The notes under the pieces are model-generated. The model was given only the letters and a program-made list of their open reading frames with translations, did no database searches and was not told where the DNA came from. Below, one piece after another: positions 2,909-6,495 of a DNA stretch of 6,495 bases. The position numbers were made by a program, and so were the translations under genes. Positions within the stretch are counted from its first letter, which is position 1; the number at the start of each line of letters is the position of its first letter. Source of the stretch: a virus (lineage: Duplodnaviria > Heunggongvirae > Uroviricota > Caudoviricetes); the IMG/VR virus record IMGVR_UViG_2711768010_000010; one strand, written 5' to 3'.

Positions 2909-3289
2909 ATGACCGAGCGCATAGAATTTGTTTTACCTTACCCGCCGACGGTGAACACTTACTGGCGTCGTCGTGGCAGCACATATTTTGTATCAAAAGC
3001 CGGGGAGCGTTATCGCCGGGCAGTGGCGCTTATTGTTCGCCAGCAGCGGCTGAAATTAAGCCTGTCCGGAAGGTTGGCAATAAAAATTATTGCAGAACCA
3101 CCGGATAAGCGCCGCCGTGACCTGGACAATATTCTGAAAGCGCCGCTGGATGCGCTGACGCATGCGGGGTTGCTAATGGACGATGAGCAGTTTGATGAAA
3201 TCAATATCGTTCGTGCTCAGCCAGTATCTGGTGGACGTCTGGGGGTGAAGATTTATCCCATAATGCTTGAAGGGCAGGTCAAAAAATGA
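2909..3289 (+). CDS. rusA: RusA-family Holliday junction resolvase, 126 aa
   Basis: Conserved RusA pattern: LPYPPTVNTYWRRRG near the N-terminus and PDKRRRDLDNILKAPLDALTHAG (E. coli RusA has [23 protein letters not shown]). ATG 2909 directly follows the upstream TAA. Stop overlaps the Q start (ATGA at 3286). Confidence 0.9.
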   Translation: MTERIEFVLPYPPTVNTYWRRRGSTYFVSKAGERYRRAVALIVRQQRLKLSLSGRLAIKIIAEPPDKRRRDLDNILKAPLDALTHAGLLMDDEQFDEINIVRAQPVSGGRLGVKIYPIMLEGQVKK

Positions 3290-4107
3290 AACTGGAAGAT
3301 TTACCGAAATACTACTCCCCAAAATCCCCCGGCCTGACTGATGCATCGGCCTCAACGTCGAAAGATGCGCTGAGTATCACTGATGTGATGGCCGCGCAGG
3401 GCATGACACAGAATCGGGCTGAGATGGGGGTTTCTGCGTTCCTTGGGAAAATGGGCATTAGTATGAATGACAGAGAGCGGGCAACAGAATTGCTGACAGA
3501 ATATGCACTCAGTCGGTGTGATCGCGTGGCGGCGTTAAGAAAACTCCCGGCAGAAATAAAACCGGCAGTGATGCGTATTATGGCTTCGTATGCGTTTGAA
3601 GATTATGCCCGTAGCGCGGCGAGCAAAAAACAGTGCCCCTGCTGTCACGGAAAAAAATTTATTGAAAGCGAGGTTTTTACAAACAAGATCCAGTATCCGG
3701 ATGGTAAGCCGCCGGTATGGGCAAAGTGTACGAAAGGTGTGTATCCGTCTTACTGGGAAGAATGGAAAAAAGTCAGGGAGGTGGTAAAAGTTGCCTGTCC
3801 GGAGTGTGGCGGAAAGGGTGAGGTTTCCACCGCCTGTAAGGATTGCCGTGGGCGTGGTGTCGCCATTCATCGTGAAGAGTCGGTAAAACGTGGTATGCCT
3901 GTTATCAGAGACTGCCAGCGTTGTGGTGGTCGTGGCTATGAAAGACTACCATCAACGGAGGCATTTAATGCTATATGCGAGGTGACAAACCAGATAACAC
4001 GCGCGTCATGGGAAAAAACAGTTAAGAAATTTTATGATGCGCTGGTGACCCGGTTTGATATTGAAGAAGCATGGGCTGAGCGGCAGTTAAAAAAGGTAAC
4101 TAGGTAA
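3286..4107 (+). CDS. Late-gene antiterminator Q (long, Cys-rich QuuQ-type), 273 aa
   Basis: Sits immediately upstream of a lambda-pR'-like promoter, pause element and tR'. Carries repeated CxxCxGxG zinc-finger motifs (CPECGGKG, CKDCRGRG, CQRCGGRG) plus CPCCHGKK. Family assignment not database-checked. Confidence 0.7.
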   Translation: MKLEDLPKYYSPKSPGLTDASASTSKDALSITDVMAAQGMTQNRAEMGVSAFLGKMGISMNDRERATELLTEYALSRCDRVAALRKLPAEIKPAVMRIMASYAFEDYARSAASKKQCPCCHGKKFIESEVFTNKIQYPDGKPPVWAKCTKGVYPSYWEEWKKVREVVKVACPECGGKGEVSTACKDCRGRGVAIHREESVKRGMPVIRDCQRCGGRGYERLPSTEAFNAICEVTNQITRASWEKTVKKFYDALVTRFDIEEAWAERQLKKVTR

Positions 4108-4111
4108 CAAG

Positions 4112-4140
4112 GTTGATTTTTCCGGAATCTGTGGTAAATT
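4112..4140 (+). promoter_or_regulatory. Late promoter pR'-like with extended -10, followed by sigma-dependent pause element
   Basis: TTGATT (4113..4118) and TGgTAAATT (4132..4140). AACGATGGG sits 6 nt after the -10 (4147..4155), the same spacing as lambda pR' (TAAATT-6nt-AACGATGGG). Confidence 0.7.
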
Positions 4141-4187
4141 CGTTATAACGATGGGCGTTTTATGCCTGACGTTAGAAGAGTTTCTAC

Positions 4188-4211
4188 AACCCGCCGCCGA
4201 GCGGGTTTTTT
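4188..4211 (+). terminator. tR'-like rho-independent terminator
   Basis: AACCCGC-CGCCGA-GCGGGTT hairpin followed by TTTTTT, about 65 nt after the predicted pR' start. Confidence 0.7.
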
Positions 4212-4331
4212 ATGACTGAAATCGCGTCAGTACAGTAAACGCGCTGGTGGCGGTGAATACCTGTCTTTCAGCTTGCTGGCTTTTTCGACAAGAGTTATTG
4301 GTGTGTCACGTTAACCGGAAAAGGAAAAGAC

Positions 4332-4529
4332 ATGCTAAAACAGCAGGATATGACAGAAACCGCCAGAGTGGTGTTTAATGAATTAAGCGTTACCGAACCG
4401 GCGACAGTCGGGGAGATAGCGCAGAATACTTACCTTTCACGCGAACGCTGCCAGTTAATACTGACCCAGCTGGTTATGGCGGGTCTGGCAGACTATCAGT
4501 TCGGTTGTTACAGACGCCTTCCGCAGTGA
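4332..4529 (+). CDS. Small winged-helix/HTH-like protein, 65 aa
   Basis: AAGGA 6 nt before ATG 4332. HTH-like segment TVGEIAQNTYLSRERCQLILTQLVMAGL. Its 3' end is embedded in a terminator hairpin. Confidence 0.5.
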   Translation: MLKQQDMTETARVVFNELSVTEPATVGEIAQNTYLSRERCQLILTQLVMAGLADYQFGCYRRLPQ

Positions 4530-4539
4530 AGGCTTTTTT
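4516..4539 (+). terminator. Rho-independent terminator after the small wHTH ORF
   Basis: GCCTTC-CGCAGT-GAAGGC hairpin (stop codon TGA 4527..4529 lies in the loop/stem) followed by TTTTTT. Confidence 0.65.
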
Positions 4540-4542
4540 ATT

Positions 4543-4553
4543 TGTGGTAAATG
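4543..4553 (+). promoter_or_regulatory. Candidate extended -10 promoter element upstream of the methyltransferase
   Basis: TGTGGTAAAT at 4543..4552 is identical to the pR' extended -10 core at 4130..4139. No clear -35. Confidence 0.3.
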
Positions 4554-4556
4554 GGC

Positions 4557-4587
4557 GGCTGGTGGGTGTTAGGGGCACCCACCAGCC
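4557..4587 (+). promoter_or_regulatory. Perfect 12-bp palindrome (GGCTGGTGGGTG-7nt-CACCCACCAGCC): operator or RNA hairpin
   Basis: Arms 4557..4568 and 4576..4587 are exact reverse complements. No T-tract follows, so not a canonical intrinsic terminator. Lies between the candidate promoter and the methyltransferase start. Confidence 0.5.
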
Positions 4588-4679
4588 ATCTGCTCATGCG
4601 TTGGGTTCACAAGCAAACCTCAGGCCCACTGCTTTGCGCAAAAGCAGAATGAGCCTATCAGAGACAGGCTTAATGATCC

Positions 4680-5738
4680 ATGCTTAATACTGTAAAAATA
4701 TCCAGTTGTGAGTTAATCAACGCCGACTGCCTGGAATTTATCCGGTCGTTACCCGAAAATTCTGTTGACCTGATAGTCACGGACCCGCCGTACTTTAAAG
4801 TGAAGCCTGAGGGCTGGGATAACCAGTGGAAGGGCGACGATGATTACCTGAAGTGGCTGGACCAGTGTCTGGCGCAGTTCTGGCGGGTGCTGAAACCTGC
4901 CGGAAGTCTTTACCTGTTCTGTGGTCATCGCCTGGCATCTGATATCGAAATCATGATGCGTGAACGCTTCAGTGTGCTGAACCATATTATCTGGGCGAAG
5001 CCGTCCGGACGCTGGAACGGATGCAACAAGGAAAGCCTGCGGGCGTATTTCCCCGCCACAGAGCGCATTCTGTTCGCGGAACATTATCAGGGGCCGTATC
5101 GTCCGAAAGATGCCGGGTATGCGGCGAAGGGCAGTGCACTGAAACAGCATGTGATGGCCCCGCTGATTTCTTACTTTCGTGATGCGCGAGCTGCCCTGGG
5201 GATAACGGCAAAACAGATTGCAGATGCCACAGGAAAGAAAAACATGGTGTCGCACTGGTTCAGTGCCGGTCAGTGGCAGTTGCCGAATGAAAGCGATTAT
5301 CTGAAATTACAGGCGCTGTTTGCCCGGGTGGCAGAAGAGAAGCATCGGCGTGGTGAACTGGAAAAGCTCCACCACCAGCTGGTGGATACGTATACCTCAC
5401 TGAACCGGCAGTATGCGGAGCTGCTGAGTGAATATAAACATCTGCGGCGGTATTTTGGCGTGACGGTGCAGGTGCCGTATACCGATGTGTGGACGCATAA
5501 ACCGGTGCAGTTCTATCCCGGGAAACATCCGTGCGAAAAACCGGCAGAAATGCTGCAGCAGATAATCAGCGCTAGCAGTCGTCCGGGTGACCTGATTGCA
5601 GATTTTTTCATGGGGTTGGGTTCGACAGTGAAAGCGGCACTGGCGCTCGGGCGTCGTGCAATTGGCGTTGAGCTGGAGACTGAACGTTTTGAGCAGACGG
5701 TTCGGGAAGTACAGGATTTAGTCAGCCAGAACGGATGA
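4680..5738 (+). CDS. Orphan DNA methyltransferase, amino-MTase (N6-adenine or N4-cytosine), beta-class motif order, 352 aa
   Basis: Motif IV DPPY near the N-terminus (LIVTDPPYF) and motif I FxGxGS near the C-terminus (DFFMGLGST), separated by a roughly 200-aa insert. No restriction endonuclease candidate in the window. Confidence 0.85.
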   Translation: MLNTVKISSCELINADCLEFIRSLPENSVDLIVTDPPYFKVKPEGWDNQWKGDDDYLKWLDQCLAQFWRVLKPAGSLYLFCGHRLASDIEIMMRERFSVLNHIIWAKPSGRWNGCNKESLRAYFPATERILFAEHYQGPYRPKDAGYAAKGSALKQHVMAPLISYFRDARAALGITAKQIADATGKKNMVSHWFSAGQWQLPNESDYLKLQALFARVAEEKHRRGELEKLHHQLVDTYTSLNRQYAELLSEYKHLRRYFGVTVQVPYTDVWTHKPVQFYPGKHPCEKPAEMLQQIISASSRPGDLIADFFMGLGSTVKAALALGRRAIGVELETERFEQTVREVQDLVSQNG

Positions 5739-5740
5739 TA

Positions 5741-5769
5741 TTGAAGAATTAATTACGCGTCGTTATTAT
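5741..5769 (+). promoter_or_regulatory. Sigma70 promoter for the tRNA cassette
   Basis: TTGAAG (5741..5746), 17-nt spacer, TATTAT (5764..5769), then a GC-rich discriminator (GCGGCTCC) before the tRNA 5' end at 5779. Confidence 0.6.
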
Positions 5770-5778
5770 GCGGCTCCC

Positions 5779-5854
5779 GGCCCTTTAGCTCAGTGGTGAG
5801 AGCGAGCGACTCATAATCGCCAGGTCGCTGGTTCAAATCCCCGATGGCGGTCCA
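5779..5854 (+). tRNA. tRNA-Ile2(CAU)-like (ileX/ileZ-like); 3' end does not fold canonically, possibly defective
   Basis: Acceptor 5' strand GGCCCTT, D-arm GCTC-AGTGGTGA-GAGC and anticodon loop CTCATAA (anticodon CAT) match recalled E. coli ileX almost base for base. After the T-loop (TTCAAAT) the sequence CCCCGATGGCGGTCCA pairs with neither the T-stem 5' strand GCTGG nor the acceptor strand. Confidence 0.5.
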
Positions 5855-5867
5855 TTATCTGCATCAT

Positions 5868-5944
5868 GCGTTGTTAGCTCAGCCGGACAGAGCAATTGCC
5901 TTCTAAGCAATCGGTCACTGGTTCGAATCCAGTACAACGCGCCA
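5868..5944 (+). tRNA. tRNA-Arg(UCU), phage-type (argO-like)
   Basis: Full cloverleaf folded by hand: acceptor GCGTTGT/ACAACGC, D-stem GCTC/GAGC, anticodon stem ATTGC/GCAAT with loop CTTCTAA (anticodon TCT), T-arm ACTGG-TTCGAAT-CCAGT, discriminator G, encoded CCA. Differs from the recalled chromosomal argU sequence. Confidence 0.9.
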
Positions 5945-5984: not shown

Positions 5985-6181
5985 AAATGTCTCACAATTC
6001 AGACGGTTGACAGTTGTCTGTTTTGCGGGGAGTTTGTTAAAAGAAACTGGCATGGTGAATCCCCCTGTGCGGAGGGGCAATCAGCGAGTAGGTATATGGG
6101 ATAATCGCGGATTCAGGTGCTGGTACTGAATTCACCGGGAGGCACCCGGCATCATGCAATGGCACATAGCGCCACTCTCCA

Positions 6182-6204
6182 GCCCTCTCCGGAGGGGCTT
6201 TTCT
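6182..6204 (+). terminator. Terminator-like hairpin with U-rich tail in the non-coding region
   Basis: GCCCT-CTCCGGA-GGGGC followed by TTTTCT. Short stem, so weak evidence. CGGAGGGGC also occurs at 6070..6078. Confidence 0.3.
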
Positions 6205-6388
6205 GTGCCGGATACATCACAGTTTCTGGAACCTTAGGTACTACAGTATCAGTCAGGGTGCTATATTTTCAGATGTGATGAAAGCCTGTCAGCAGGCAGG
6301 GCGTATCGGAAATGACCCAGTAGAGAAAACGTTGACTCAGATACCGGTGCTGAGTTACCGGGAAACCGGCATCACATGACCGCTATCC

Positions 6389-6495
6389 TGAGGTGTACTG
6401 GCAATAGCGGACACTACCATTTGTTCTTTTTTTAAGCAGCCATCTGATGATATTTTTCCCTGAAGGCTGCCGGGGAGATATTCCCCAGACGAGAG
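6389..6495. repeat. Right copy of the perfect 107-bp terminal inverted repeat (IR-R)
   Basis: Exact reverse complement of 1..107. Carries an inverted copy of the ORF 76..306 start; on the minus strand this gives only a 21-codon remnant (6355..6420). Confidence 0.95.

Follow-up and report, generated by a model that had tools for sequence, protein, structure and literature searches.

We analysed a 6,495-nucleotide (nt) stretch of phage DNA (Caudoviricetes record IMGVR_UViG_2711768010_000010; below, the window, with all coordinates on the + strand unless stated) that encodes an adenine DNA methyltransferase (hereafter, the methylase; 4680–5738) behind a small open reading frame (ORF; 4332–4529). 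We found that the methylase gene is preceded by a conserved structured 5′ leader RNA of ~130 nt (4551–4679), identified by profile search, covariance model and pairing statistics. A perfect 12-nt inverted repeat upstream of the gene (4557–4568 and 4576–4587, with a 7-nt spacer) had been described as a palindrome in the first-pass annotation of this DNA; we are highly confident that it is stem P1 of this strand-specific leader. We consider it likely that the methylase is a late, Q-dependent enzyme of the M.EcoGII type, whose conserved RNA leader acts in cis.

When the 200 nt upstream of the methylase were aligned for 14 phages, a block from about position 4549 to the ATG was kept from E. coli to Morganella; the end of the small ORF and the TGTGGTAAAT motif that follows it were unconserved in the same alignment. 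We fetched loci via the methylase from species-representative genomes and viral contigs (n=408). In 329 of the 408, nhmmer placed the leader immediately before the methylase; in every case it lay on the same strand as the methylase and ended at the ATG, and 176 distinct versions were seen. The leader is more conserved (69–85% identity) than third codon positions of the methylase (36–62%), its length varies without regard to multiples of three, and no reading frame is kept open. A leader peptide was considered in the form of a 60-amino-acid (aa) ORF with a TTG start (4505–4687), and was rejected, as this frame is unconserved.

A scan of column pairs in a MAFFT alignment was blurred by indels within the helices, and anchoring by regular expressions matched only 9 of the 176 leaders and was dropped. 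The helices could be defined after a covariance model had been built and 93 leaders at <96% identity had been realigned to it (hits of 87–165 bits). As judged on these 93 sequences, 85.0% of the cells of the proposed structure are paired, compared with 35–44% in slid controls; the covariation score is 0.285, compared with 0.06–0.09 after sliding, and none of 500 shuffles reached the observed value. Changes on both sides were seen at 19 of the 30 pairs. P1 is 92% paired, with compensatory changes at 10 of its 12 pairs. Its arms read GGCUGGUGGGUG/CACCCACCAGCC in E. coli types; Providencia types have GACUGUAAAAGUG/CACUCUUACAGUC instead, and Serratia types GGCGGUUAGGUG/CACACUAACCGCC. Helix P3, too, has changed on both sides at six of its seven pairs (GCUUU/AAAGC, CUGCUG/CAGCAG and UUGUG/CACAA are examples). 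P0, which extends P1 at its base, is 97% paired and varies only by pairing-preserving transitions, with 109 wobble cells out of 558. G·U pairs are abundant, and on the opposite strand they would be A·C mismatches, a pattern that suits an RNA of the + strand and not a DNA site. The single-sequence fold of the leader in the window has a z-score of −4.8. P1 was also considered as an intrinsic terminator, and this was rejected because no U tract follows it.

The leader is apparently undescribed, and we regard it as a candidate new RNA family for Rfam. Searches with the 4227 families of Rfam 15 returned no + strand match on 4549–4679 or on four divergent loci at E values up to 1, the sole overlapping match being to P26 on the − strand (4556–4620; 24 bits, below the cut-off of 36 bits). 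A full-text literature search for the leader sequence gave irrelevant matches only, and in the literature on late or antitermination control of EcoGII and on regulation of Shiga toxin (Stx) phage methylases we found nothing on control of this gene.

The pattern of variation bears directly on the proposal that the palindrome serves as a DNA operator, to which the product of the small ORF would bind in the manner of a restriction–modification (R–M) controller, with the methylase having its own promoter. The perfect 12-bp repeat is indeed present in the window, and the protein encoded upstream is, with confidence, a winged helix resembling the DNA-binding domains of IclR and MarR. However, taking the repeat for a DNA site does not hold, since only pairing, and not sequence, is conserved: the arms vary with compensatory substitutions and with G·U pairs (mismatches in DNA or on the other strand), as a strand-specific RNA helix does. 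The first-pass annotation had also suggested that the small ORF and the methylase form a controller-like pair. The small ORF is found directly upstream in 208 of 323 redundant loci, which would suit such a pair, but a profile search of 92 non-redundant units of leader and methylase detected it directly upstream in 45 and not in 47, and the units without it have the same P1 apical sequence. Conversely, two phages (PhiR5_1, L007, and phiSTEC1575-Stx2k, L008) carry the small ORF without the methylase. These two observations show that the small ORF is only loosely linked to the methylase; its winged-helix product is optional, an accessory and not an obligate controller. Given also that it is not an Xre-type controller and that no nuclease is present, we regard an operator as highly improbable.

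The winged-helix fold itself, called from the sequence in the first-pass annotation, was borne out. The small ORF encodes a 65-aa stand-alone protein of the phrog_331 family (1.4e-37), whose members are labelled ‘TrmB family’ or ‘DprA-like winged helix’ in databases. Sub-threshold Pfam matches in the family were to DprA_WH (20 of 32 members) and TrmB (17 of 32), as well as to MarR and Rrf2, with no match to the Xre-type helix–turn–helix (HTH) families HTH_3 and HTH_31. AlphaFold2, run on an alignment of database homologues, gave a model with pLDDT of 90.9 and the topology H1-beta-H2-H3-beta-hairpin (a single-sequence model, with pLDDT of 53, was too poor and was not used). Foldseek superposed the model on IclR and MarR winged-helix domains (TM-score up to 0.82, root-mean-square deviation 1.5–1.9 Å) and also on the winged helices of O-methyltransferases and SelB; a profile search against PDB sequences gave no significant match. 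The small ORF ends, as had been proposed, in what looks like a terminator of its own: a terminator-like stem–loop (4516–4533), with the stop codon in its loop, is followed by T6 in a T-rich tail (whole feature 4516–4541). A hairpin with a T-rich tail, built from differing stem sequences, lies upstream of at least 57 of the 93 leaders, with the Providencia type lacking it.

We examined how the leader is organized around the methylase start. P0 (4551–4556 with 4592–4597) and P1 make one long hairpin (4551–4597), with a loop at 4569–4575 and an internal loop on the 3′ side (4588–4591). It is followed by hairpin P3 (4629–4647; 4629–4635 with 4641–4647) and by P4 (4651–4656 with 4666–4671), after which an invariant UGAUC (4674–4678) stands directly 5′ of the AUG, the whole of this last part spanning 4651–4679. 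P4 is formed in each clade in differing registers, and is 63% paired as aligned. An alternative set of pairings involves 4592–4628. In it, the 3′ strand of P0 (segment B, 4592–4597) pairs with 4609–4614 to form P2, and UGGGC from the 5′ strand of P0 (4552–4556) pairs with GCCCA at 4624–4628 (A:D). P2 and A:D, together with P1, make a three-way junction that excludes P0. P2 covaries (UA:56/CG:30; GC:80/AU:4), with two mismatches at its centre in the E. coli type; for A:D, 99.8% are pairable, with one compensatory change. The two folds score about equally, at 85.0% and 86.3% paired. In addition, UGAUC can pair with GGUUCA (4604–4609) to form P5, which is pairable in 87.6%, compared with 18–40% in slid controls, and is near-invariant in sequence. 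There is no canonical Shine–Dalgarno sequence before the methylase AUG in the window, and the E. coli type as a whole lacks one. In Serratia/Chania-type leaders (L062, L066, L182–L270), the methylase start lies 8 nt farther upstream, with the AUG in UUAUGAUC, after a canonical GAGGG Shine–Dalgarno; the design of initiation thus differs between clades that share the leader.

The persistent core of the leader is P0–P1, which the short Photorhabdus/Xenorhabdus-type leaders retain and which, in phiSTEC1575-Stx2k, stands upstream of an unrelated gene. In the Xenorhabdus-type loci (L065, L073, L315, L399 and similar), a shorter (~100 nt) relative of the leader follows the small ORF and precedes the methylase. 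The GGUGAAAUG flank is retained in it, as is a GGGCUGGUG...CGCCAGCC hairpin, and the P3/P4 domain is missing; these short leaders were detected by neither the leader profile hidden Markov model (HMM) nor the covariance model.

P0–P1 might be mainly an RNA-processing signal, whose cleavage separates the methylase mRNA from the upstream late RNA and frees segment B. With its long hairpin and 3′-side internal loop it presumably resembles the RNase III sites of phage T7. A helix of 18–20 bp with a conserved, asymmetric internal loop of 4 nt would suit this role, as would the survival of P0–P1 alone in the short leaders and before the unrelated gene in phiSTEC1575-Stx2k, and the second, covarying partner of segment B in P2. 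Yet the apical GUG...CAC and the loop are conserved, which points to specific recognition and not to recognition of generic double-stranded RNA. We find it unlikely, though conceivable, that processing is the main function; moreover, it would be a sub-mechanism of a cis-acting leader and not a true alternative to it.

The first-pass annotation had also given the methylase its own promoter, on the grounds that TGTGGTAAAT occurs in two exact copies, at 4130–4139, beside the putative late promoter described below, and at 4543–4552. The recurrence is unremarkable, as 12 of 200 shuffles give at least two matches at no more than one mismatch, and the repeat by itself is therefore weak evidence. Alignment of relatives shows that the copy at 4543–4552 is a lineage-specific variant of the leader 5′ flank, which is conserved only as UGUG-R-AAAU and reads TGTGGTAAAT in 3 of the 93 sequences. 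It is possible to view this flank as a sigma-70 extended −10 element (TGnGAAAAT, with a G+C-rich discriminator GGGCGG), in which case the methylase transcript would start in the left arm of P1, and the hairpin would be a 5′-terminal stabilizer. The conservation of UGUG-R-AAAU directly after the terminator-like hairpin, the likeness of the flank in the window to the −10 region of the late promoter, and the ~26 of 93 relatives that read TGTGAAAAT, an acceptable extended −10, speak for this. However, at the position that should hold the −11 A, 64 of the 93 have G, Serratia-type flanks have lost the −7 T, there is no −35 element, and a consensus scan called no promoter at 4543–4552. The AUGGGC just 3′ of the flank, which would lie upstream of such a start, is paired in 97–99.8% of sequences, and its partners vary in a way that keeps pairing, including one compensatory change. 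As these invariant bases pair as RNA, the transcript is expected to start farther upstream. A constitutive promoter would also be at odds with M.EcoGII being toxic and kept silent in lysogens (see below). We thus consider this promoter improbable, and, from the sequences of the relatives, an internal promoter is unlikely to be a feature of the family.

Both arms of P1 in the window contain the Chi octamer GCTGGTGG, at 4558 on the + strand and at 4579 on the − strand. Chi occurs ten times in the 6.5-kb window (at 872, 2017, 2075, 4243, 4558 and 5378 on the + strand, and at 2481, 2533, 4579 and 5372 on the − strand, by octamer scan), where 0.3 would be expected, and far outnumbers every other one of the 168 composition-matched octamers. 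A second inverted pair forms the overlapping palindrome CCACCAGCTGGTGG within the methylase gene (5372–5385). The repeat might therefore matter as DNA, with two opposed Chi sites protecting rolling-circle phage DNA from RecBCD or making a recombination hotspot for module exchange. Related E. coli-type loci have 1.12 Chi per kb, and lambdoid phages rich in Chi, of which the window with its two Chi-bearing P1 arms is a further case, are already documented (Genome Res 2025, PMC12315714; Bobay et al. 2013, PMC3784561). The two recombinant phages also break in or just after P1: PhiR5_1 (L007:2860-2880) diverges inside the left arm and phiSTEC1575-Stx2k (L008:2842-2905) just after segment B, so that module-exchange junctions fall at the Chi-bearing hairpin. 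On the other hand, other clades build the hairpin from unrelated, Chi-free sequences such as GACUGUAAAAGUG and GGCGGUUAGGUG, and the minus-strand Chi is unconserved even among close relatives. Chi was thus rejected as the conserved feature of the palindrome; as a function of the stem it can be no more than secondary and specific to a lineage, and a primary role as DNA seems very unlikely to us.

The methylase (352 aa) is a beta-class enzyme without a partner endonuclease, as the first-pass annotation had it. It matches PF01555 (N6_N4_Mtase; E = 7.9e-42, residues 29–340 aligned to the 221-position profile) and PADLOC MTase_II (4.6e-163), and the PDB relatives M.RsrI, CcrM and MboIIA align to both of its halves. 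DPPY (motif IV; residues 35–38, 4782–4793) is N-terminal and FMGLG (motif I; residues 310–314, 5607–5621) is C-terminal, which is the beta-class order. It is identical to M.EcoGII at 324 of 349 residues (93%), including the target recognition domain (TRD), when compared with the sequence in Supplementary Table S1 of PMC11551740, a machine-read copy with a few character-recognition slips. It is also 95% identical to the enzyme of phage 1720a-02, which Murray et al. named as a close relative of M.EcoGII (PMC5778455). From this similarity, and from its beta-class motifs and domain family, the methylase is almost certainly an orthologue of M.EcoGII, the non-specific N6-adenine enzyme of E. coli prophages. 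M.EcoGII consists of a Rossmann core (1–134 and 260–349) and a four-helix TRD (160–237) (PMC11551740), and what had been taken for an insert of roughly 200 aa between motifs IV and I is the ordinary central TRD and linker of beta-class enzymes. The enzyme is thus not an unusual one but an ordinary and widespread methylase of lambdoid and Stx phages, whose lack of specificity is known from M.EcoGII. Motif I reads FMGLG here, where M.EcoGII and at least 90% of the relatives aligned have FMGSG; since contig L096 encodes a 100% identical protein, FMGLG is a real allele.

M.EcoGII methylates adenine in any context, in both DNA and RNA (PMC5778455). It is not expressed in the lysogen, is deleterious if made constitutively and blocks many restriction enzymes (PMC5778455; PMC12707154), and a review groups it with Mom of phage Mu as a protective modification made only upon induction (PMC12707154). 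The anti-restriction role that the first-pass annotation offered as one option is the accepted reading for this near-identical enzyme. The annotation's other option, a remnant of an R–M or defence module, found no support: PADLOC and Pfam revealed no nuclease or defence-system protein in the window or nearby, and the gene order is constant in 14 of 14 annotated phages and prophages, namely Q, terminator, (small ORF), methylase, and then tRNAs/stx or holin/lysis genes. From this invariable placement between Q and the tRNA, stx or lysis genes, the methylase is an orphan of the late operon and probably an anti-restriction enzyme. The region 4100–5760 is carried by many Stx phages; its DNA has a match in 254 phage records and in 3177 of the 5426 complete E. 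coli genomes. Both ORFs, the two 10-mers, the palindrome and the hairpin that ends the small ORF had all been located correctly in the first-pass annotation.

Upstream, the layout is that of the start of a lambdoid late operon. The Q-type antiterminator gene (3286–4107; 273 aa) matches the Pfam families PF03589 Antiterm (1.6e-53) and DnaJ_CXXCXGXG (5.9e-07), and the PHROG anti-termination protein Q-like. This Q is long, and has a DnaJ-type CxxCxGxG zinc-finger region at residues ~171–218 within a protein of the PF03589 family. Directly after it, a putative pR′-type late promoter can be read from the sequence at 4113–4152 (−35 TTGATT, 4113–4118; −10 TAAATT, 4135–4140; AACGAT, 4147–4152). A simple promoter consensus scan made no call at 4113–4152. 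We take the site to correspond to pR′ of phage lambda, as it lies just after Q, and AACGAT begins six bases past the −10, which we assume to be the spacing of the sigma-dependent pause element of lambda. A terminator scan found a tR′-like intrinsic terminator at 4188–4215 (stem 4188–4207, followed by a T run), and SfV and Ayreon have annotated terminators at the corresponding position.

These features suggest how the methylase may be controlled. In the lysogen, transcription from pR′ would stop at tR′ (4188–4207) and again at the hairpin at 4516–4533, keeping the toxic enzyme off. Upon induction, Q-modified RNA polymerase would pass both terminators, so that the methylase would be made late and could modify most adenines of the replicating phage DNA, and progeny might in this way escape adenine-sensitive restriction in the next host. 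The leader would act in cis after transcription and set the amount of methylase. In the arrangement that we consider most likely, UGAUC before the AUG would be occluded by GGUUCA (P5); UGGGC and segment B each have two exclusive partners (P0, or A:D and P2), so that by refolding the leader would expose or hide the region where translation starts. Folding during transcription, cleavage of P0–P1 (for example, by RNase III) or a bound factor could trigger the change. Gating of translation or processing is the most likely function of the leader; the mechanism of regulation is, from the sequence, about an even call. It is also possible, although we think it unlikely, that the leader represents a new class of riboregulator, a three-way-junction switch gating a toxic genome-wide adenine methylase. 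Such a switch might respond to S-adenosylmethionine or S-adenosylhomocysteine, or to the methylase itself through N6-methyladenosine (m6A) in its own leader, a feedback that is conceivable because M.EcoGII also binds and methylates RNA; in some lineages it might respond to the winged-helix protein bound to the RNA, conceivable because the winged helices of SelB act on RNA.

Several points weigh against a Q-dependent late methylase with a cis-acting leader. The covariance-model alignment was fitted to the proposed structure, which biases the pair counts towards it. Covariation cannot discriminate among P0, A:D and P5, which hardly vary, and P4 is poorly aligned. The start of transcription, the read-through and the regulatory effect of the leader are all deduced from sequence. 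In about a quarter of the relatives, the flank UGUGAAAAU would do as an extended −10, and an internal promoter may exist in some lineages. Leu replaces Ser within motif I, and the activity of this allele is assumed. A pseudoknot between the P1 loop and CUAYCA, which pairs in 78% compared with 25–43% when shifted, misfits the loop of the window itself, and we do not claim it.

The window as a whole is the late-regulatory region of a lambdoid prophage, in the order sok/hok-like module, DUF968/HNH gene, rusA, Q, small ORF, methylase, tRNAs and STnc100 small RNA (sRNA). Downstream of the methylase there is a tRNA cluster (5782–5944), with a degenerate tRNA (5782–5847), detected by the Rfam tRNA model (33.7 bits), and a tRNA-Arg(UCU) (5868–5944), detected by ARAGORN and by the Rfam model (70.1 bits). 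The order is the same in phiP27 and in strain TOE17, and the cluster lies at what is usually the tRNA/stx moron site in the late operon. The degenerate tRNA, which ARAGORN did not call and which aligns to positions 4–67 of the 71 in the Rfam model, occupies the place of an intact tRNA-Ile in phiP27 and TOE17, and is probably a decayed copy of the tRNA-Ile gene of these relatives. A full-length STnc100 sRNA lies downstream of the tRNAs (6021–6210; 123.6 bits), followed by a weak, partial second copy (6249–6437; 21.8 bits, under the family cut-off). At the other end, a sok antisense RNA match (RF01794, 112 bits; 947–1122) overlaps a hok-like membrane-peptide ORF of 70 aa (1060–1272), and 947–1272 looks like a type I toxin–antitoxin module inside the prophage.

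Among known systems, the closest are M.EcoGII and M.EcoGI of the E. coli O104:H4 C227-11 prophage (Murray et al. 2018, PMC5778455), non-specific adenine methyltransferases that share with the methylase its motif order and its prophage-borne orphan status, with ~93% identity in the case of M.EcoGII. The differences lie in length (352 aa in the window, 349 aa in M.EcoGII) and in FMGLG instead of FMGSG, and the published work on M.EcoGII (PMC5778455) does not describe the leader, the small ORF or the late-operon position. No other phage anti-restriction enzyme illustrates ‘methylate everything’ as clearly as M.EcoGII, which is also a widely used reagent for mapping of chromatin and protein–DNA contacts and for engineering of m6A in RNA. 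To our knowledge, how phages silence and then release such a toxic methylase has not been described.

The com-mom operon of phage Mu offers a parallel in organization, with an upstream ORF of ~60 aa, a structured leader by a start that may be occludable, and an enzyme that modifies DNA, is not made in lysogens and is toxic if expressed. In Mu, the RNA-binding zinc-finger protein Com activates translation of mom, the start of which is otherwise occluded by a hairpin. The two systems are, however, not homologous: the small ORF in the window encodes a winged helix and not a Com-like protein, Mom is not a methyltransferase, and the small ORF is dispensable (present in 45 of 92 units). An obligate RNA-binding activator of the com-mom type was thus not found here, the small ORF being absent from about half of the units. 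A parallel between an M.EcoGII-type enzyme and Mom has been drawn before (PMC12707154). The controller (C) proteins of R–M systems, with their C-box operators, also resemble the locus in having a small HTH-type protein beside a methylase and an inverted repeat nearby. C proteins, however, are Xre-type HTH proteins of ~70–100 aa that recognize conserved boxes in the DNA ahead of their own gene and control when the nuclease is expressed, whereas the ORF in the window encodes a winged helix with no nuclease, and the repeat lies 3′ of the ORF and behaves as an RNA helix.

The leader is best compared with structured cis-regulatory leaders (riboswitches and attenuators, ribosomal-protein leaders, T7 RNase III sites). 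It has in common with them a conserved multi-helix 5′ untranslated region tied to one gene family, covariation, mutually exclusive pairings and a start region that may be occludable, although it matches none of the Rfam families. We found covariation beyond controls on one strand, constant position and orientation, conservation above the neutral level and no coding capacity. The methylase is thus the known component of the locus, and the structured leader, probably a member of the broad class of cis-acting mRNA leaders, is the new one. The methylase being ordinary, the interesting part is the non-coding RNA that precedes its gene and is attached to an enzyme of practical importance. Two terminators in a Q-dependent late operon, and a leader that travels with the gene across Enterobacterales, would provide a concrete handle on how this enzyme is controlled.

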